Sequence record: OY720014 | Length of the DNA: 64,000 bases | From: Escherichia phage vB_Eco_QOTSP | Reading direction: 5' to 3' (one strand) | In this document: in pieces, positions 2,877 through 61,977 of the stretch | Position numbering within the stretch: position 1 is the first letter of the stretch | Layout: each line of letters begins with the position of its first letter | The notes under the pieces: model-generated | What the model saw: only the letters and a program-made list of their open reading frames with translations | Told to the model about the DNA's origin: nothing | Databases searched by the model: none | Position numbers and translations under genes: made by a program

Positions 2877-3742
2877 TATTGAGCCACCCCGATTTTCTGC
2901 GTAGCGATAACTTTAACTGCTGCTCTCATACCGACAGTTGAAGAACTTATAGTCGCCGTTACGTAATTTTCTTTAATACTAAATGCAATATTAGCGATTT
3001 CGTCTTCTTCGGTTTCATTCCCAACTCGCATGACAGCATATTCAGAAGAAATTACCTCTGAATTGACAGTATCCACAAGAATATTTATTTCTGCTGTTTT
3101 AATTTTTCTTCCATCTACTGATTGGCATGTAACTAGTAATTTAGCCATATTGTATTCAGTGCGATGAAATAGTGGAATATCAACTGATCCAGATGTAGAA
3201 ATATTCCATGTACCTTCAGCTGGTGATTCCTTTTGTCCAAACATACTTTCAATAGAATAATTCCAAACCGACGTAGAATTATCAGATGAAATACAGCGTA
3301 AAGTAACTTTACTATATGGGCTAGTTACTACTAAATTACCTGAAACACCTTTAATTGAATCAATAGCTTGAATTGTCAAAGGATTAGTAACTGATATTGA
3401 TCCGTTAGAATTAATGAATTCAACACAATCGCCGAGTTCGCCTCTTTCAATGATAACTTTAACACCTACAGTAGAGGTATCAATATCATGCCTAGTGCCA
3501 ACTTTTACTGGAGTTGCATACTCTGCAATAGAGTGTTTTTGATAATATCCAGTAGCATGGATAATTTGACCATCTGCTCCGGTGCCATTTGCTACTGCCA
3601 TTTTACGTTGATCGCCAAACGCATTATAAATTGCGTTAAAATCACTATTAATTTTATTACCACCGTCGAATAAGATATCACCAGTAGAAGCGTTACCAAT
3701 TTCGCCGGTATCAATCAATTTCTTTGGTTCTTGAATGAACAT
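2876..3742 (-). CDS. 9: baseplate wedge, long-tail-fiber connector gp9
   Basis: 288-aa ORF MFIQEPKKLIDTGEIGNASTGDILFDGG, matches T4 gp9 size and position. Confidence 0.9.
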   Translation of the reverse strand: MFIQEPKKLIDTGEIGNASTGDILFDGGNKINSDFNAIYNAFGDQRKMAVANGTGADGQIIHATGYYQKHSIAEYATPVKVGTRHDIDTSTVGVKVIIERGELGDCVEFINSNGSISVTNPLTIQAIDSIKGVSGNLVVTSPYSKVTLRCISSDNSTSVWNYSIESMFGQKESPAEGTWNISTSGSVDIPLFHRTEYNMAKLLVTCQSVDGRKIKTAEINILVDTVNSEVISSEYAVMRVGNETEEDEIANIAFSIKENYVTATISSSTVGMRAAVKVIATQKIGVAQ

Positions 3743-51666: not shown

Positions 51667-52224
51667 ATGTCAGAAACTAAGCCTAAATATAATTACGTAA
51701 ACAATAAAGAGCTTTTACAAGCTATTATTGATTGGAAAACAGAATTAGCAAATAATAAAGACCCAAATAAAGTAGTTCGTCAGAATGATACTATCGGATT
51801 AGCCATTATGCTTATTGCAGAAGGCTTATCTAAACGTTTCAACTTTTCAGGATACACCCAGTCTTGGAAACAAGAAATGATTGCAGATGGTATAGAAGCT
51901 TCTATTAAGGGGCTTCATAATTTTGATGAAACGAAATATAAAAACCCACATGCGTATATAACTCAAGCTTGTTTTAATGCATTCGTCCAACGTATTAAAA
52001 AAGAACGTAAGGAAGTTGCAAAGAAATATAGTTACTTCGTTCACAATGTCTATGACAGCCGTGACGACGATATGGTTGCGTTAGTAGATGAAACTTTTAT
52101 TCAAGACATCTACGATAAAATGACGCATTACGAAGAATCAACCTATAGAACACCGGGGGCTGAAAAGAAAAGTGTTGTAGACGATTCTCCTAGTTTGGAT
52201 TTTTTATATGAGGCTAACGATTAA
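51667..52224 (+). CDS. 55: late-transcription sigma factor gp55
   Basis: ORF track 51661..52224 (GTG) trimmed to ATG 51667; 185 aa, [23 protein letters not shown] recognised as T4 gp55. Confidence 0.93.
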
Positions 52225-52426
52225 CCTCTCCGGATTCTTGGAAGAAATACCTGAAGTTGAAGCTATTCCCTATTTACTTAAAATGTATCTCAGGGAAGTT
52301 TTAGCTCTTGACATTGATATTGATCCAGAAAATCCGTATGATACCGCTTTTAAATCTAATGGTGTAGAATTAAATTACAGGTATCATTTAACAGATGATG
52401 ATTTTTATTTTATATTAGAGAAATAA
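52208..52426 (+). CDS. hypothetical protein
   Basis: 72-aa ORF. Confidence 0.5.
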
Positions 52427-52427
52427 T

Positions 52428-52745
52428 ATGACTGATAAACCCGAAATTAATGATGAAGTGGAAAAGCTTATTTCTTCTATTGAAGAAAAGAACCGTCTTG
52501 AAGCAGAAAGAAAAGCAAATAAGTTATTGTCTAAAAACAAACGCGAACTGAATCGTCTTTATAAGCACGCTCAGATCGCAGCTGAAAACAATAATTTTGC
52601 TCAATACGAATATGCTATCAAGAAAAGTCGGGATATTCTAAAACAGCCATATAACGATGAACTCATCAGTATTCTTTGGAAGACTACTAGATCGCAAATT
52701 GAGGATATGATTGATGCTTACACACGTAAAATTCAAGCGTCTTAA
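52428..52745 (+). CDS. hypothetical protein
   Basis: 105-aa ORF. Confidence 0.55.
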   Translation: MTDKPEINDEVEKLISSIEEKNRLEAERKANKLLSKNKRELNRLYKHAQIAAENNNFAQYEYAIKKSRDILKQPYNDELISILWKTTRSQIEDMIDAYTRKIQAS

Positions 52746-52917
52746 AATTAATGCAGGATTTACTGAATCTTTGAATGGTCATCTTTGTGTGAAAATTTCT
52801 GAAAAAGAATACCATGATAGTTCAATTAAAGAAGTTAATCCTCCTATTGTAAGAGCAGACCCTAATATGAAAGTGTGGGTTGATTCTTATCAAGTCAAAA
52901 AATGGTGGCAGTTATGA
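52711..52917 (+). CDS. hypothetical protein
   Basis: 68-aa ORF overlapping upstream gene. Confidence 0.45.
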   Translation: MMLTHVKFKRLKINAGFTESLNGHLCVKISEKEYHDSSIKEVNPPIVRADPNMKVWVDSYQVKKWWQL

Positions 52918-53093
52918 AAGATGAACACCCAGACTTCTGAAATAGATTATAATAAAATTCGTTCCTCTAAAGAGGAAATGATGAGACTCTTTAAAGCGTC
53001 TCATGATAAAGCTAAAGCAGAAGGAACTATAAAATATAAGCGCATAAAATTTAAAAGTTCTAACGAGCCTCTGTATGGCGTATTATGTGGATA

Positions 53094-53107
53094 GGAGCTT
53101 CGGCTCC
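53094..53107 (+). terminator. GC-rich UUCG-loop hairpin
   Basis: ggagcttcggctcc. Confidence 0.45.
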
Positions 53108-53112
53108 TATAT

Positions 53113-53136
53113 TGCTTTATAAATTTTTGGTAAAAT
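53113..53136 (+). promoter_or_regulatory. MotA-type middle promoter for alpha-glucosyltransferase
   Basis: TGCTTTA box, 11-nt spacer, TAAAAT -10. Confidence 0.45.
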
Positions 53137-53160
53137 AAACCAAAACAAAGAGGATATTAA

Positions 53161-54363
53161 ATGAAAGTATGTATTTTTATGGCTCGAGGTCTTGAAGGTT
53201 GTGGTGTAACTAAATTTTCTCTTGAGCAACGTGATTGGTTTATTAAGAATGGTCATGAAGTAACTTTGGTTTATGCTAAAGATAAATCATTTACTCGTAA
53301 TTGCGCGCATGATTATAAATCATTTTCAATTCCGGTTTTATTGGCAAAAGAATATGATAAAACACTTAAGCTGGTAAATGATTGTGATATTCTAATTATC
53401 AATTCAGTTCCTGCTACTTCGGTTGAAGAAGACACTATTAATAACTATAAAAAAATTATTGATAACATTAAACCTTCTGTTCGTGTTGTAGTTTATCAAC
53501 ATGACCATTCTTCTCTTTCTTTGCGCCGAAATTTGGGATTAGAAGAAACTGTTCGTCGAGCTGATGTTATTTTTAGCCATTCTGATAATGGTGATTTTAA
53601 TAAAGTTCTGATGAAAGAATGGTATCCTGAAACAGTTTCTCTGTTTGATGATATTGAAGAAGCACCGACAGTATATAACTTTCAGCCTCCTATGGATATT
53701 GCGAAGGTTCGGTCAACCTACTGGAAAGATGTTTCTGAAATTAACATGAATATCAATCGTTGGATTGGTCGTACGACTACATGGAAAGGTTTTTATCAGA
53801 TGTTTGATTTTCATGAAAAACATCTTAAACCTGCAGGACTAAGTACTATTATGGAAGGTCTGGAACGTTCTCCAGCGTTCATTCCTATTAAAGAAAAAGG
53901 AATTCCATACGAGTATTATCGTCTTCATCAAGTAGACCAAATTAAAATTGCTCCTAATTTGCCAACGCAAATTCTTGACCGTTATGTAAATAGCGAAATG
54001 CTTGAACGTATGAGTAAATCCGGATTTGGTTATCAGTTGAGTAAGTTGGATAAAAAATATCTACAGCGCTCTTTAGAATATACTCATCTCGAGCTTGGTG
54101 CATGTGGAACAATTCCGGTATTTTGGAAATCTACTGGCGAAAATTTAAAATTCCGTGTTGATAATACTCCTTTGACCTCGCATGATAGCGGTATCATTTG
54201 GTTTGATGAAAATGATATGGAATCAACATTTGAACGTATTAAAGAACTGTCATCTGACCGAGCTCTTTATGACCGTGAGCGTGAAAAAGCATATGAATTT
54301 TTGTATCAGCATCAAGATTCAAGCTTCTGCTTTAAAGAACAGTTTGACATTATTACAAAATAA
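53161..54363 (+). CDS. agt: DNA alpha-glucosyltransferase
   Basis: 400 aa; CIFMARGLEGCGVTKFSLEQRDWFIKNGHEVTLVYAKDKSF recognised as T4 alpha-gt. Confidence 0.93.
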   Translation: MKVCIFMARGLEGCGVTKFSLEQRDWFIKNGHEVTLVYAKDKSFTRNCAHDYKSFSIPVLLAKEYDKTLKLVNDCDILIINSVPATSVEEDTINNYKKIIDNIKPSVRVVVYQHDHSSLSLRRNLGLEETVRRADVIFSHSDNGDFNKVLMKEWYPETVSLFDDIEEAPTVYNFQPPMDIAKVRSTYWKDVSEINMNINRWIGRTTTWKGFYQMFDFHEKHLKPAGLSTIMEGLERSPAFIPIKEKGIPYEYYRLHQVDQIKIAPNLPTQILDRYVNSEMLERMSKSGFGYQLSKLDKKYLQRSLEYTHLELGACGTIPVFWKSTGENLKFRVDNTPLTSHDSGIIWFDENDMESTFERIKELSSDRALYDREREKAYEFLYQHQDSSFCFKEQFDIITK

Positions 54364-55819: not shown

Positions 55820-56006
55820 CATTAATGATGAATTCATAGCAAATATTGATTATATCGAAGAAGATTCTAGATATGTTGGAATAATTTACATTACATCAAA
55901 AACAGCACAAGGCGTTGTTTGCATGGCTGAATTTGACGAATACTTTTTAGATTATGATGATATGATAGAATGGTCTAAAAGATACATTAAAAGGAATCTT
56001 TTGTGA
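55791..56006 (+). CDS. hypothetical protein
   Basis: ORF track 55743..56006 trimmed to ATG 55791; 71 aa. Confidence 0.45.
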   Translation: MHTVKFSTFDINDEFIANIDYIEEDSRYVGIIYITSKTAQGVVCMAEFDEYFLDYDDMIEWSKRYIKRNLL

Positions 56007-57691
56007 AGAATTTTAAACTAAATCGAGTTAGGTATCAAAATATAATGTCAGTAGGTGGAAATCCTATTGACATTCAATTAGATAAGGTTCAAAAAACTCT
56101 TATTACTGGACGAAATGGCGGTGGTAAGTCTACTATGTTAGAAGCCATCACATTTGGGCTTTTTGGCAAGCCATTCCGTGATGTAAAGAAAGGTCAATTA
56201 ATAAACAGCACAAATAAGAAAGAACTTTTAGTTGAACTGTGGATGGAATATGATGAGAAAAAGTACTATATCAAAAGAGGACAAAAACCAAACGTTTTCG
56301 AAATCACCGTTAACGGTACACGTCTTAATGAATCTGCCAGCAGTAAAGATTTCCAAGCAGAATTTGAACAGCTTATCGGAATGTCATATGCCAGTTTCAA
56401 GCAGATTGTTGTCCTTGGTACAGCAGGGTATACCCCTTTCATGGGTTTGTCGACCCCTGCGCGAAGAAAGCTCGTGGAAGACCTGCTCGAGGTAGGAACA
56501 TTAGCTGAAATGGATAAGCTTAATAAAGCACTAATACGTGAATTAAATTCACAAAACCAAGTGCTTGATGTTAAAAAAGATAGTATTATCCAACAAATTA
56601 AAATATATAATGATAACGTTGAACGCCAGAAAAAATTAACGGGTGACAACCTTACTCGTCTTCAAAATATGTATGATGATTTGGCAAAAGAAGCTAGAAC
56701 GCTAAAATCGGAAATAGAAGAAGCTAATGAAAGATTAGTTAATATTGTTTTAGATGAAGACCCGACTGATGCATTTAATAAAATCGGTCAAGAAGCAGTT
56801 TTAATTAAATCAAAAATTGACTCGTATAATAAAGTCATTAATATGTATCACGAAGGTGGATTATGTCCAACCTGCTTGTCACAATTAAGTTCCGGTGATA
56901 AAGTTGTTTCTAAAATTAAAGATAAAGTTTCTGAATGTACGCATTCGTTTGAACAGCTTTCAACACATCGTGATAATTTAAAAGTTCTTGTTGATGAATA
57001 CCGAGATAATATTAAAACCCAGCAGTCGTTGGCAAATGATATTCGCAATAAAAAGCAATCTCTAATCACGACGGTAGATAAAGCTAAAAAAGTTAAAGCA
57101 GCTATAGAAAAAGCATCTTCTGAGTTTATTGACCATGCTGATGAAATAGCACTGCTTCAAGAAGAACTTGATAAAATTGTTAAGACAAAAACTAATTTAG
57201 TAATGGAAAAATACCACCGAGGAATTTTGACTGATATGCTCAAAGATTCTGGTATTAAAGGTGCTATTATTAAAAAGTACATTCCATTATTTAATAAGCA
57301 GATTAACCATTATCTTAAAATAATGGAAGCGGATTATGTGTTTACATTAGATGAAGAATTTAATGAGACAATTAAATCCCGTGGTCGTGAAGATTTTAGT
57401 TATGCTTCATTCAGTCAAGGTGAAAAAGCGCGAATTGATATTGCTCTTTTATTTACTTGGCGTGATATTGCTGAAAAAGTTTCAGGTGTTAAAATAAGTT
57501 GTTTATTTCTTGATGAAGTGTATGACGGTGCATTTGATGCTGAAGGTATTAAAAATGTAGCTAAAATTTTAGATGGTTTGAAGGATACCAACTTCTTCAT
57601 AATTTCACATAAAGACCATGACCCACAAGAATATGGTCAGCATATTCAGATGGAAAAAGTTGGTAGATTTAGTTTAGCTAAGATTAGCTAA
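56003..57691 (+). CDS. 46: recombination endonuclease subunit gp46 (Rad50/SbcC-like ATPase)
   Basis: 562 aa from GTG; Walker A GRNGGGKST, coiled-coil middle with CPTC zinc hook, signature SQGEKARIDIA, Walker B LFLDE. Confidence 0.93.
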   Translation: MKNFKLNRVRYQNIMSVGGNPIDIQLDKVQKTLITGRNGGGKSTMLEAITFGLFGKPFRDVKKGQLINSTNKKELLVELWMEYDEKKYYIKRGQKPNVFEITVNGTRLNESASSKDFQAEFEQLIGMSYASFKQIVVLGTAGYTPFMGLSTPARRKLVEDLLEVGTLAEMDKLNKALIRELNSQNQVLDVKKDSIIQQIKIYNDNVERQKKLTGDNLTRLQNMYDDLAKEARTLKSEIEEANERLVNIVLDEDPTDAFNKIGQEAVLIKSKIDSYNKVINMYHEGGLCPTCLSQLSSGDKVVSKIKDKVSECTHSFEQLSTHRDNLKVLVDEYRDNIKTQQSLANDIRNKKQSLITTVDKAKKVKAAIEKASSEFIDHADEIALLQEELDKIVKTKTNLVMEKYHRGILTDMLKDSGIKGAIIKKYIPLFNKQINHYLKIMEADYVFTLDEEFNETIKSRGREDFSYASFSQGEKARIDIALLFTWRDIAEKVSGVKISCLFLDEVYDGAFDAEGIKNVAKILDGLKDTNFFIISHKDHDPQEYGQHIQMEKVGRFSLAKIS

Positions 57692-58400
57692 GTTTATATT
57701 TACAGTTATCATTATGCCATCTTGATAAATTTCCGAAAGTGGTAACTTTACCACAATGGACGCAAGTACCAGTCTTTTCAGTTTTCTTGCGTCCATTTGG
57801 ATTTTTCTTGCAGAAATTTCTATGCGCTGCGATAACGCATTTCTTGCCTATCATTCCGCAGAATTCGCAGGATGTTTCTTCAAGAACGATTGCTTTAAGC
57901 CCGTTTGAGATATTATTTCTGTGTTCTTTAGACATTGGTGGTCTAACTTTAGGATTAGGGTGATTTGGGCAGTTATCAAAATGCCAACGATTCATATTCC
58001 CGCTTAATCCAGACTTACCGCAATGAGGACAAGTTAGTCTTGCTTTATTAGCTACTGCATCAGACATTTTCTTTCGTGTCTCCTGGGAGAATTCTTTATT
58101 CTTTTCTATTTCCCAGAGTTTACGACGAATCCAACCGAAAGTTTTATTGTTGCGTTTAGCGTATTTCGTAGAAACTGTCATCATGTTAGCAGCATAGACT
58201 AATTTTGGTTCAGAAGGATAAATTTTTACTAAAAGTTGATGAGCTACATAGTGCTCTTCTGGTGTTAAATCTACTAAGTTTGAAGCATCATCGCTGCCAT
58301 TTAAACAGCGTGGTATAATGTGATGAGATTCAGTATAACAATCAAGTTTTCGAGATTTAGCATTAGAGATTAACTTTTCATAAATTAGTTTATAATTCAT
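57684..58400 (-). CDS. HNH homing endonuclease with triple zinc-finger repeats (mob-like)
   Basis: 238 aa; HNH core ESHHIIPRCLNGSDDASNLVDLTPEEHYVAHQ; three C..C..WH..NC repeats; 3' end overlaps gene 46 by 8 nt. Confidence 0.8.
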   Translation of the reverse strand: MNYKLIYEKLISNAKSRKLDCYTESHHIIPRCLNGSDDASNLVDLTPEEHYVAHQLLVKIYPSEPKLVYAANMMTVSTKYAKRNNKTFGWIRRKLWEIEKNKEFSQETRKKMSDAVANKARLTCPHCGKSGLSGNMNRWHFDNCPNHPNPKVRPPMSKEHRNNISNGLKAIVLEETSCEFCGMIGKKCVIAAHRNFCKKNPNGRKKTEKTGTCVHCGKVTTFGNLSRWHNDNCKYKLS

Positions 58401-58434
58401 AACATATCCTTTTGATACAGCGAGTGATAAACAT

Positions 58435-58442
58435 ATTTATAC
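58435..58442 (-). promoter_or_regulatory. late promoter TATAAATA (minus strand) for the HNH endonuclease
   Basis: Plus-strand tatttata about 35 nt upstream of the endonuclease start codon (58400). Confidence 0.5.
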
Positions 58443-58451
58443 GGAGGAACT

Positions 58452-58643
58452 GTGGCAGAATATTCAACTGGACAGCATCTATTAACTATTCCTGAAATAA
58501 AACGATATATTCTGAGAAATAATTTTTCTAATGAAGAGCATATAGTTACTGAATCTATGCTTAGGAATGCATTTAAATCAGAATATACAAAAATAATGTC
58601 CAATAGAAATGAAGCTTGGACTGTTACTGATTATTATGACTAA
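58452..58643 (+). CDS. hypothetical protein (positional equivalent of T4 45.2)
   Basis: 63-aa ORF from GTG after GGAGGAA. Confidence 0.5.
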   Translation: MAEYSTGQHLLTIPEIKRYILRNNFSNEEHIVTESMLRNAFKSEYTKIMSNRNEAWTVTDYYD

Positions 58644-58652
58644 AGGTGTATT

Positions 58653-59042
58653 ATGACTAAAATTACTGTGAATTATACTGTTGATGTAAAAGATATTCAG
58701 CCAAAACACGTGCGTTCTGAATCAAATCCACAAAACCAAAATAAAATTCGTCGAGCATGGGTTTTGTCTCTTTCTGATAACGCAATGGAAGTTATTCAGA
58801 ACAAAATTAAATCTGCACCTGCTCGTCATGCGTATTATGAAGCTATCGATCGTGAAGTAAGTAATAAATGGATTGAACTAATGCGCAAACATACTACAGA
58901 ATCCCTAAACGCCGGTGCTAAATTTATTATGACTTCATGTGGTGAACGTCTTGAAGATGATTATTGCGGTAATGCAGATGAACGTCTAATTGTTGCTGCT
59001 CAAATTGTTGCCGAAACAATCGCAGCTGATTTTAATCGTTAA
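58653..59042 (+). CDS. rpbA: RNA polymerase-binding protein RpbA
   Basis: 129-aa ORF immediately upstream of gene 45, as T4 rpbA. Confidence 0.75.
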
Positions 59043-59043
59043 T

Positions 59044-59068
59044 TGCTTTATTAAATTAGTTATAAAAT
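59044..59068 (+). promoter_or_regulatory. MotA-type middle promoter for gene 45
   Basis: TTGCTTTA MotA box, 12-nt spacer, TAAAAT. Confidence 0.55.
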
Positions 59069-59097
59069 TAAATCTCATTTGAATTGAAGGAAATTAC

Positions 59098-59784
59098 ATG
59101 AAACTGTCTAAAGATACTACTGCTCTGCTTAAAAATTTCGCTACTATTAACTCCGGTATTATGCTTAAATCCGGTCAATTTATTATGACTCGCGCAGTTA
59201 ATGGTACAACTTACGCGGAAGCAAATATTTCTGACACTATTGATTTTGATGTAGCAATTTACGATTTAAACGGTTTTCTTGGTATTCTGTCTCTAGTTAA
59301 TGATGATGCAGAAATTTCCCAGTCAGAAGATGGAAATATTAAAATTGCTGATGCCCGTTCAACAATTTTTTGGCCAGCAGCCGATCCGAGTACAGTAGTT
59401 GCTCCTAATAAACCAATTCCATTCCCGGTAGCATCTGTTGTTACTGAAATTAAAGCTGAAGACCTTCAACAACTGTTGCGTGTATCTCGTGGTCTGCAGA
59501 TTGATACAATTGCTATCACGGTAAAAGAAGGTAAAATCGTAATTAACGGTTTTAATAAAGTAGAAGATTCTGCTTTGACTCGTGTTAAATATTCTTTGAC
59601 TCTTGGTGATTATGATGGTGAAAATACATTTAATTTCATTATCAATATGGCAAATATGAAAATGCAACCAGGAAATTATAAACTTCTGCTCTGGGCAAAA
59701 GGTAAACAAGGTGCTGCTAAATTTGAAGGTGAACATGCGAATTATGTAGTAGCTCTTGAAGCTGATTCTACCCACGATTTTTAA
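59098..59784 (+). CDS. 45: sliding clamp gp45
   Basis: 228 aa; MKLSKDTTALLKNFATINSGIMLKSGQFIMTRAV recognised as T4 gp45. Confidence 0.95.
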   Translation: MKLSKDTTALLKNFATINSGIMLKSGQFIMTRAVNGTTYAEANISDTIDFDVAIYDLNGFLGILSLVNDDAEISQSEDGNIKIADARSTIFWPAADPSTVVAPNKPIPFPVASVVTEIKAEDLQQLLRVSRGLQIDTIAITVKEGKIVINGFNKVEDSALTRVKYSLTLGDYDGENTFNFIINMANMKMQPGNYKLLLWAKGKQGAAKFEGEHANYVVALEADSTHDF

Positions 59785-61361: not shown

Positions 61362-61730
61362 ATGATTGAAATTACTCTTAAAAAACCTGAAGATTTTCTG
61401 AAAGTAAAAGAAACTTTGACTCGTATGGGAATTGCTAATAATAAAGATAAAGTTCTGTATCAGTCCTGTCATATTCTTCAGAAAAAAGGACTATACTATA
61501 TCGTTCATTTTAAAGAAATGCTTCGTATGGATGGCCGTCAAGTTGAAATGACAGAAGAAGATGAAGTTCGTCGTGATTCGATTGCATGGCTATTAGAAGA
61601 TTGGGGACTGATTGAAATCGTTCCTGGTCAAAGAACTTTTATGAAAGATTTAACTAATAACTTCCGAGTTATTTCTTTTAAACAAAAACATGAATGGAAA
61701 CTCGTTCCTAAATATACGATTGGTAATTAA
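61362..61730 (+). CDS. regA: translational repressor RegA
   Basis: 122 aa; MIEITLKKPEDFLKVKETLTRMGIANNKDK recognised as T4 RegA. Confidence 0.95.
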   Translation: MIEITLKKPEDFLKVKETLTRMGIANNKDKVLYQSCHILQKKGLYYIVHFKEMLRMDGRQVEMTEEDEVRRDSIAWLLEDWGLIEIVPGQRTFMKDLTNNFRVISFKQKHEWKLVPKYTIGN

Positions 61731-61740
61731 GGTAAATTAT

Positions 61741-61977
61741 ATGACACAATCAGAGATTCAGTTTACCGAAGCTTTTCTAATATTCGAAAATCTAAAACAA
61801 ACATATGGTCTGTCTTCTACCCAACTGGTTTTTGACCTCCCGGAAGATAAACAAATAGAATTCCAAAAAGAATTCCAACGATTAGTTTACCCACGCCAAC
61901 GCGCATTTCATGCGATTATCAAAACCACAAATACAGATGGCAAGTCCGTTATATCGCGTCGTACAATAGAAATTTAA
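61741..61977 (+). CDS. hypothetical protein
   Basis: ORF track 61690..61977 trimmed to ATG 61741; 78 aa. Confidence 0.5.
   Translation: MTQSEIQFTEAFLIFENLKQTYGLSSTQLVFDLPEDKQIEFQKEFQRLVYPRQRAFHAIIKTTNTDGKSVISRRTIEI

Follow-up and report, generated by a model that had tools for sequence, protein, structure and literature searches.

A probable Mob-family HNH homing endonuclease gene convergent with gene 46 in a T4-like Escherichia phage

We analyzed a 64,000-nt stretch of DNA from Escherichia phage vB_Eco_QOTSP (OY720014; hereafter "the window"), in which an endonuclease gene lies between genes 46 and 45.2. By sequence comparison, its product belongs among the free-standing HNH proteins of the T4 Mob family and most resembles MobE. 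This protein is probably a late-expressed homing endonuclease that would home through a cut at the 3′ end of gene 46 followed by repair. The element is an ordinary, routine example of a well-known class, and the gene already carries a homing-endonuclease annotation in RB32, RB51, and many further GenBank records. Features of the locus are listed in Table 1.

Table 1. Positions of features of the endonuclease locus, numbered from the first nucleotide of the window.
Feature	Position	Strand	Description and basis
Diverged gene 46 3′ block (Walker B to stop)	57500..57691	+	Alignments to T4 and among carriers; inherited with endonuclease gene
Gene 46 codon 548	57644..57646	+	Candidate immunity position in presumed target; ATT here, CTT in T4
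Hairpin across both convergent stop codons	57674..57691		TTAGCTA-AGAT-TAGCTAA; z −3.1
Endonuclease ORF	57684..58400	-	238 aa, ATG start, twin of RB32ORF054w; ORF list, PHROG 655, MobE match
CCHC zinc finger 3 (C213, C216, H229, C233)	57693..57773	-	Alignment, model, MobE comparison
Helix (aa 158-170) + CCHC zinc finger 2 (C178, C181, H193, C197)	57804..57935	-	Alignment, model
NUMOD3-like helix (aa 106-117) + CCHC zinc finger 1 (C123, C126, H140, C144)	57957..58094	-	Alignment, model; Pfam NUMOD3 sub-threshold
HNH nuclease domain, N-terminal (aa 1-95)	58116..58400	-	Motif E24-x-H26-H27...N41...H50...H54; beta-beta-alpha aa 24-60
Shine-Dalgarno AAGGA	58407..58411	-	6 nt before endonuclease ATG; sequence
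T4 late-promoter box TATAAATA of endonuclease gene	58434..58441	-	Sequence; function inferred
Right junction	58444..58454	+	T4 homology restarts at 45.2 Shine-Dalgarno GGAGGAA; alignment to T4

The endonuclease gene is free-standing, with no intron or intein host, and is convergent with gene 46 (56003–57691, plus strand). The first-pass annotation described a 238-aa minus-strand ORF that interrupts a plus-strand gene block and overlaps the 3′ end of gene 46 by 8 nt, and the locus has all three properties: the ORF is present and begins with ATG; from a-gt (53161) through regA (61730), all the other genes are on the plus strand; and positions 57684–57691, the palindrome TTAGCTAA, are common to the 3′ ends of both genes. 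Hairpins with stems different from that in the window occupy the same place in phage 348Ecol098PP (348E, z −5.9), Klebsiella phage Roth67 (z −3.6), and L012 (z −4.0); a hairpin across the convergent stops was also looked for in phT4A and in the RB51 subtype and is absent in both. Across seven copies of the endonuclease gene, 21 variable codons have synonymous changes only and 4 have amino-acid changes, a pattern that, as judged from these codons, shows purifying selection.

The HNH core and the three repeated zinc-finger modules, both proposed at the outset, are borne out by alignment and by modeling. The AlphaFold2 model (whole-protein pLDDT 92.7) comprises a single HNH beta-beta-alpha unit together with three CCHC fingers. 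In particular, residues E24, H26, H27, N41, H50, and H54 are invariant in an alignment of 73 sequences, and strands 24–27 and 42–45 and helix 47–60 are modeled with pLDDT ~97, placing conserved His/Asn ligands on a beta-beta-alpha unit, as in the HNH superfamily. The protein matches PHROG 655 ("homing endonuclease") at 7.5e-69. The three C-x2-C...H-x3-C modules (residues 123–144, 178–197, and 213–233) are each beta-beta-alpha in the model and are conserved in the endonuclease clade; the third, which is the only finger also found in T4 MobE, has ligands that are invariant in 73 homologues. Pfam matches fall below the gathering cut-offs for HNH PF01844 (16.9 bits, cut-off 21.4) and for NUMOD3 (12.6 bits, cut-off 20.4), and no Pfam family scores above cut-off over the three-finger array. 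A sequence search of the PDB yielded nothing significant (best E-value 0.17). A match to the HNH part of IscB (NCBIfam) is far below threshold (23 bits versus 175), and we do not read it as a sign of RNA guidance.

T4 MobE aligns with the protein over its full length (residues 1–238; 34% identity; E 7e-34). Both have an N-terminal MNY..IY...HHIIP.C.GG.DD..NLV.LT..EH HNH domain and a C-terminal CPHCGK...RWH.D.CK finger, and both are encoded by free-standing genes adjoining a conserved DNA-metabolism gene. In both systems, carriers and non-carriers differ by a small patch in the neighboring gene (PMC2790892). The two proteins differ in that MobE has NUMOD3 repeats where the present protein has CCHC fingers 1 and 2, and in that MobE clears the Pfam cut-offs for HNH (24.6 bits) and NUMOD3, whereas the present protein clears neither. 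The genes differ as well: mobE, which is located between nrdA and nrdB, is promoterless with an internal terminator (PMC2790892) and is co-directional with nrdA, whereas the present gene is preceded by a late-promoter box of its own and runs convergently to gene 46. MobE nicks T2 nrdB close to a polymorphic patch that adjoins a conserved block, and the flanks are co-converted (PMC2790892); its presumed target lies at the nrdB 5′ end, whereas that of the present protein lies at the gene 46 3′ end.

T4 MobB, by comparison, is 44% identical over the N-terminal nuclease domain (residues 1–110) and has no similarity beyond residue ~110, and the DNA-binding part is therefore unrelated. Comparison with the Mob family, which the first-pass annotation had called for, thus returns MobE along its full length and MobB at the N-terminus only. 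The label "similar to mobB" in the RB32 and RB51 annotations is true only of the N-terminal 110 residues; mobB itself, which adjoins a-gt in T4, is absent from the window. I-HmuI (SPO1) and I-TevIII (RB3) are HNH homing endonucleases with an extended two-part design, in I-TevIII with zinc fingers, and share with the protein predicted here an N-terminal HNH domain and a C-terminal DNA-binding region; both are intron-encoded, whereas the present gene is free-standing, and neither is among the fold-search matches of our model. SegF and SegG, free-standing GIY-YIG endonucleases of T4, carry out intronless homing through a cut in a neighboring essential gene (56 and 32, respectively) with co-conversion of a diverged flank. 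The biology is the same as that proposed here, but the nuclease family is unrelated (GIY-YIG versus HNH).

Of 599 matching phage records, 59 contain the endonuclease gene (roughly one T4 relative in ten), among them RB32 (RB32ORF054w), RB33, and RB51. T4 lacks it, as the first-pass annotation suggested, and just 55 nt separate the gene 46 stop from the 45.2 start in that phage. Intact empty sites are found in T4, 215Ecol030PP, pSs-1, Kha5h, and ECML-363, the sporadic distribution among close relatives that is typical of a homing gene. The gene is absent from T4 and from ~90% of matching records, and the carriage by T4 and most relatives that would speak against an insertion is therefore not what we find. 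All 59 copies are at least 95% identical in protein and have one common right junction, and the same count of 59 is obtained for the whole insertion, for the protein at this identity, and for the gene 46 tail at 90% identity or more. A search of IMG/VR identified no close (>95%) copy, only relatives at 33–66% identity, and a literature search found no paper on RB32ORF054w or on a homing endonuclease between genes 46 and 45.2.

Carriage goes together with divergence at the 3′ end of gene 46. Specifically, block 57500–57691 is 76–78% identical to T4, versus 97–100% in the remaining gene, with the first fixed carrier difference at 57500. Carrier tails are 93–100% alike and 77–79% identical to carrier-less tails, and below the 59 records the next tail among the matches listed is at 81%. 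In the gene 46 body, RB51 is nearer to carrier-less 215Ecol030PP (98.0%) than to RB32 (97.3%), and on this comparison carriers are not a clade. The block is fixed in carriers and is the co-inherited flank, unlike the empty allele, that is expected of a homing gene. The same pattern is seen in the Roth67/Roth68 pair, which are 95.3% identical in the gene 46 body and 75.9% in the tail. In a Mosigvirus pair, differences are concentrated in the final ~45 nt of the gene. Linkage of the whole block might arise because homology there is too poor to resolve recombination, and not because of where the cut falls, and frequent recombination among T4-like phages after one old acquisition could have scrambled the flanks.

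In Mosigvirus, Slopekvirus, Roth67, and an IMG/VR contig, homologues that are 42–64% identical lie at this same site, convergent with gene 46 and overlapping its stop. The same-site set (the Mosigvirus 348E HNH nuclease, Slopekvirus phT4A gp050, and the Roth67 and Yersinia phage MHG19 proteins) likewise has the three-finger architecture. In 348E, Roth67, and L012, which represent three other lineages, TATAAATA lies 42–53 nt ahead of the ATG, and the leader resembles that of the present gene. Unlike the present gene, Slopekvirus copies have no perfect TATAAATA, and in Roth67 the copy is broken into two ORFs, an indication that copies do decay. The first-pass annotation proposed a likely lineage-specific mobile insertion; the diverged flank and the same-site homologues support a mobile insertion, and the element is not confined to this lineage. 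Together, the link to a diverged gene 46 flank and the same-site homologues in other genera are, at the sequence level, hallmarks of a mobile homing endonuclease gene.

Comparison of carrier and carrier-less alleles points to a candidate target and immunity site ~45 nt before the gene 46 stop, near ...CATCTTCAAATGAAG.... At the Leu codon of gp46 ...YGQH-L-QM... (codon 548), CTN occurs in 43 of the 58 carrier-less loci and in none of the 14 carriers, a contrast that we assessed with a Fisher test, which ignores shared ancestry and covers only three genus-level carrier/non-carrier contrasts. Codon 548 does not predict carriage on its own, since the other 15 carrier-less loci also lack CTN. The substitutions at this codon are recurrent and different (ATT, TTG, TTA, and ATC).

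The upstream region of the gene is consistent with late expression. A late promoter had been placed about 35 nt upstream, and TATAAATA is present on the minus strand (58441–58434), 33 nt short of the ATG, where it would serve as the box near −10 of a T4 late gene, although the octamer by itself is not rare in the window (15 copies versus 10.5 ± 3.3 expected). The gene would thus be expressed late from its own TATAAATA promoter. A consensus scan of 57300–58800 revealed neither an intrinsic terminator nor a convincing sigma-70 promoter, and a MobE-style internal terminator is therefore unsupported. Nor is there support for an I-TevI-style hairpin that would hide the ribosome-binding site, because the structure of the 5′ leader of the endonuclease mRNA is not unusual (z −0.64).

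Judged by alignment to T4, the insertion is also a replacement: the region upstream of 45.2 in T4 has been removed, and a gene 46 tail came in with the element. In particular, a TGCTTTA-11 nt-TATAAT element upstream of 45.2 in T4, which from the MotA-box consensus we take to be the 45.2 middle promoter, is missing here, and 45.2 has a GTG start and one extra Ala codon. In 348E, by contrast, a MotA-type element upstream of 45.2 is retained. A literature search found no useful source on a T4 middle promoter upstream of 45.2. A resemblance of the first endonuclease codons to the T4 45.2 promoter region was judged to be an artefact of aligning AT-rich sequence.

We propose that homing would proceed as follows. 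During mixed infection, the C-terminal array, comprising two helix-plus-finger units and a third CCHC zinc finger, would bind the conserved gene 46 3′ end of a phage without the element, and the N-terminal HNH nuclease would nick or cut around ...CAT-CTT-CAA-ATG..., some 45 nt ahead of the stop codon of gene 46. The break would be repaired by copying carrier DNA across, and repair would move the endonuclease gene, its promoter, and the carrier's diverged gene 46 tail together. Substitutions in the tail would shield the carrier from self-cleavage. The gene 46 product, the Rad50-like phage analogue of Rad50, is an essential ATPase and part of the machinery that processes the breaks that homing needs.

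The strongest alternative, which we consider unlikely, is that the endonuclease is domesticated or defunct and does not home, being kept through a functional gene 46 tail or through some other service, such as degradation of competitor or host DNA or regulation as a DNA-binding protein. The split Roth67 copy fits this reading, as does the rewiring of the 45.2 upstream region by the insertion, which makes regulatory consequences possible; in addition, activity of MobE-type enzymes has been hard to show in vitro, and the MobE authors kept a non-homing role open (PMC2790892). However, the catalytic and zinc ligands are intact and invariant, purifying selection is strong, the distribution is patchy with the foreign flank always linked, and one site is occupied in four lineages by proteins just 42–64% identical, all of which is as active homing predicts.

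More improbable still is a single acquisition by the ancestor of a Tequatrovirus sub-lineage followed by vertical descent, with patchiness arising from general recombination without endonuclease-driven conversion. The near-identity of the 59 proteins and their one right junction fit such a history, and T4-like genomes are known mosaics, a-gt in the window being itself mosaic relative to T4. Single acquisition leaves unexplained, however, the identical convergent position of 42% homologues in other genera, the diverged tail and conserved body of Roth67/Roth68, and the recurrent codon 548 substitutions. That the ORF is an antisense chance ORF, for which the unusual orientation is the sole point in favor, is already refuted by 2278 homologues at E ≤ 1e-10, the PHROG match, the confident model, and the bias of variable codons to synonymous change.

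A broader reading, which we advance tentatively as a possibility falling a little short of probable, is that one clade of three-finger HNH endonucleases has remained loyal to the last ~50 bp of gene 46 in at least four T4-like genera. Each invasion would bring a chimeric gp46 C-terminus, immunity would arise through different substitutions at one Leu codon, and the helix-plus-CCHC-finger array would be modular, with a specificity decodable from carrier and non-carrier alleles.

Beyond the target prediction and the finger array, a predicted compact DNA-binding design, the element leaves the view of T4-like genomes unchanged. From the comparisons, the target is predicted to span ~50 bp at the 3′ end of gene 46, and a single codon is put forward as the candidate for immunity. 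When related phages co-infect a cell, free-standing homing endonucleases influence which essential-gene alleles survive, and the passenger here would be the C-terminal ATPase segment of gp46, from Walker B to the end.

The window, a segment of Tequatrovirus (T4-type) DNA, has the endonuclease gene as the sole minus-strand ORF between genes 46 and 45.2, inside a block whose members from a-gt to regA are all on the plus strand, as the first-pass annotation had described. The ORF and gene 46 have their final 8 nt in common, the overlap claimed, and this octamer (TTAGCTAA) is palindromic; the late promoter, expected about 35 nt upstream of the start, is found as TATAAATA, 33 nt before the ATG. The HNH core and three zinc-finger modules read from the sequence are also recovered: the former as residues invariant in a 73-sequence alignment (E24, H26, H27, P30, G35, N41, H50, and H54) and as a beta-beta-alpha unit, and the latter as three CCHC fingers, in a confident AlphaFold2 model computed from that alignment (mean pLDDT 92.7). 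Fingers 1 (CPHCGKSGLSGNMNRWHFDNC) and 3 (CVHCGKVTTFGNLSRWHNDNC) are clearly duplicates of each other.

Features of the locus, modules of the endonuclease (AlphaFold2 model), and homologues at the same site
Feature	Position	Strand	Remarks
a-gt	53161-54363	+	
47.1, 47, 46.2, 46.1	between a-gt and 46	+	in window gene order
Gene 46	56003-57691	+	
Endonuclease ORF	57684-58400	-	238 aa
AAGGA	6 nt before endonuclease ATG	-	
Late-promoter box	58441-58434	-	
45.2	58452-58643	+	
rpbA, 45, 44, 62, regA	downstream of 45.2, in that order	+	
HNH unit	residues 24-60		beta-beta-alpha
CCHC finger 1	residues 121-143		beta-beta-alpha; helix 106-117 ahead
CCHC finger 2	residues 175-196		beta-beta-alpha; helix 158-170 ahead
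CCHC finger 3	residues 210-232		beta-beta-alpha
Mosigvirus 348Ecol098PP homologue			57% identity; 4-nt overlap with gene 46
Klebsiella phage Roth67 homologue	3001-3270 and 3334-3735 of the Roth67 sequence		64% identity; two ORFs
IMG/VR contig L012 homologue			64% identity
IMG/VR contigs L013-15 homologues			44% identity
Slopekvirus phT4A homologue			42% identity; 14-nt overlap with gene 46

Searches with the protein give PHROG 655 'homing endonuclease' at 7.5e-69 and 2278 homologues at E <= 1e-10; its alignment with T4 MobE is full-length (34% identity, E 7e-34). Its likeness to T4 MobB is limited to the N-terminal 110 residues (44% identity), and the RB32/RB51 label 'similar to mobB' therefore covers the nuclease domain only. 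Pfam HNH and NUMOD3 fall below threshold for this protein (16.9 bits vs 21.4, and 12.6 bits vs 20.4, respectively) and above threshold for MobE. The element is a relative of MobE and, by analogy, would work likewise. There are four differences: the DNA-binding module (three CCHC fingers here; in MobE only the last finger, with NUMOD3 repeats taking the place of the first two), orientation (convergent with the neighbour, whereas mobE is co-directional), regulation (a late promoter of its own and no terminator found inside the gene; mobE lacks a promoter and contains a terminator), and the adjoining gene (46 here, nrdB for mobE). The nuclease domain (aa 1-95; 58116-58400, minus strand) is 58-69% identical to endonucleases that have other C-termini and, in several further T4-like phages, adjoin the DNA end protector gene (gene 2), exceeding the 34% overall identity with MobE, which suggests that nuclease and DNA-binding modules have been shuffled among endonucleases.

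T4 mobB, an HNH gene between a-gt.2 and a-gt, is absent at 52208-53160, where gene 55 and, at the a-gt.5 to a-gt.2 positions, four small ORFs lead directly into a-gt, and the only match to T4 MobB in the whole window is the 46/45.2 endonuclease. Since the 46/45.2 gene is in turn absent in T4, the two phages have reciprocal Mob-type gene sets in the region. Other differences nearby comprise a mosaic a-gt gene (53287-54086; stretches of 67-88% identity to T4 flanked by 95-100%) and a 95-aa ORF between regA and gene 43 (61690-61977, plus strand), which is absent from T4 (a gap in the alignment), has a counterpart in RB32 (RB32ORF047c, annotated 'similar to RB18 43.1'), and adds to the small indels that distinguish T-even genomes. 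Phage Aplg8 has a second annotated homing endonuclease (positions 1-588 of its own sequence) immediately ahead of gene 46, where other phages have 46.1 and 46.2, so that gene 46 is bracketed by two endonuclease genes.

Comparison of the 46/45.2 junction across relatives, proposed beforehand, bears out the claimed insertion relative to T4: the T4 junction is a 55-nt spacer from the gene 46 stop to the 45.2 start, and only 59 of the 599 phage records matched by megablast of 56900-59100 contain this region in full, including RB32 (RB32ORF054w), RB33, RB51, slur07, and PhiZZ30. The description as a lineage-specific mobile insertion holds for absence from T4 and most records, but not for confinement to one lineage, as other genera have homologues at the same site. 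Most of the 59 records already annotate a homing endonuclease, a GenBank label dating from the RB32 record, and Escherichia phage T4_ev240 encodes an identical protein; the gene was thus already known as an annotation, and the first-pass finding is real and rightly interpreted, but ordinary. A literature search for this gene found no study. Of the variable codons in seven Tequatrovirus copies, 21 show synonymous changes only and 4 change the residue (always conservatively), so selection maintains the gene.

The insertion amounts to a replacement and comes with a linked flank. Specifically, gene 46 is 97-100% identical to T4 to about 57450 and 76-78% identical over its last ~230 nt. Seven carriers (phages with the gene) were aligned with five non-carriers (empty junctions), whose tails are of two haplotypes. 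Fixed differences separating the two groups begin at 57500, at the Walker B codons, and the block extends to the right junction near 58443. Three criteria each give 59 records: a gene 46 tail (57455-57691) that is >=90% identical (next listed record, 81%), the whole insertion, and the protein at >=95% identity. Carriers form no clade in the gene 46 body, RB51 being 98.0% identical to carrier-less 215Ecol030PP and 97.3% to RB32. The strict 57500-57691 linkage in Tequatrovirus could equally arise because homology for resolving recombination is lacking within the block. RB51 and ESH35 make up a carrier subtype in which the last ~45 nt of gene 46 differ (...QDYGQHIKMEKVGRFSVATIN), the endonuclease ends KHKH, the overlap is 4 nt, and the junction hairpin is missing.

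On the right side, T4 homology resumes at the 45.2 Shine-Dalgarno sequence and reaches 99-100% identity from the third codon onward, 45.2 here having a GTG start and one added Ala codon. T4's TTATGCTTTA-11 nt-TATAAT, which we take from the MotA-box consensus to be a middle promoter, is absent. No terminator-like site was found between 46 and 45.2, making read-through to 45.2-rpbA-45 plausible. Mosigvirus carrier 348Ecol098PP retains TTGCTTTA-12 nt-TATAAT ahead of 45.2, in a back-to-back arrangement with the endonuclease late promoter; window-type carriers have lost this TATAAT element.

The homologues in other genera converge on gene 46 and extend over its stop, and congeners RB69, LF82-31, and Roth68 have empty sites. 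The Roth67 copy, being split in two, looks like a decaying copy. Between Roth67 and Roth68 the Tequatrovirus pattern recurs, with 95.3% identity in the gene 46 body and 75.9% in the tail, and the gene 46 tails of the Mosigvirus pair are near-identical outside a cluster of differences within the final ~45 nt. The window, 348Ecol098PP, Roth67, and L012 all keep the late promoter together with a similar leader (TATAAATA-nnTTTATC...GCTGTATCAAA...AGGAT); Slopekvirus copies are without a perfect box. A hairpin with differing stems spans both stop codons in these four lineages (z -3.1, -5.9, -3.6, and -4.0, respectively) and is absent in phT4A and the RB51 subtype; a possible role is terminating or stabilising both convergent transcripts.

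The first six carrier-less genomes compared across genera have in common CAT-CTT-CA(A/G)-ATG-A (gp46 ...YGQH-L-QM...), and all eight of the first-compared carriers have a changed Leu codon 548 (57644-57646): ATT in Tequatrovirus, TTG in Mosigvirus, TTA in Roth67 and L012, and ATT or ATC in Slopekvirus. Among 72 IMG/VR loci reached via the gp46 C-terminus, CTN is present at this codon in 0/14 carriers vs 43/58 non-carriers (Fisher's test, 2.6e-7, which ignores phylogeny; genus-level contrasts number only three). Because 15 non-carriers are also without CTN, codon 548 is a candidate, not proof; the enzyme probably acts near it, as a candidate target and immunity position. Two observations are new here and modest in scope: the conservation of one site in several genera, and the difference between carriers and non-carriers at codon 548.

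MobE makes an HNH-dependent, strand-specific nick in T2 nrdB, within a polymorphic patch beside a conserved block, and its flanks are co-converted (PMC2790892). For the present gene, the comparisons establish anatomy, homology, distribution, linkage, and selection, whereas its expression timing, cleavage, target, and immunity are inferred. By analogy, the protein would be made from its own promoter late in mixed infection, its helix-plus-finger array would bind the conserved end of gene 46 in a carrier-less genome, and its HNH domain would nick or cut near codon 548; recombinational repair would then copy the carrier gene 46 tail together with the endonuclease gene and promoter, and the variant tail would let the carrier escape.
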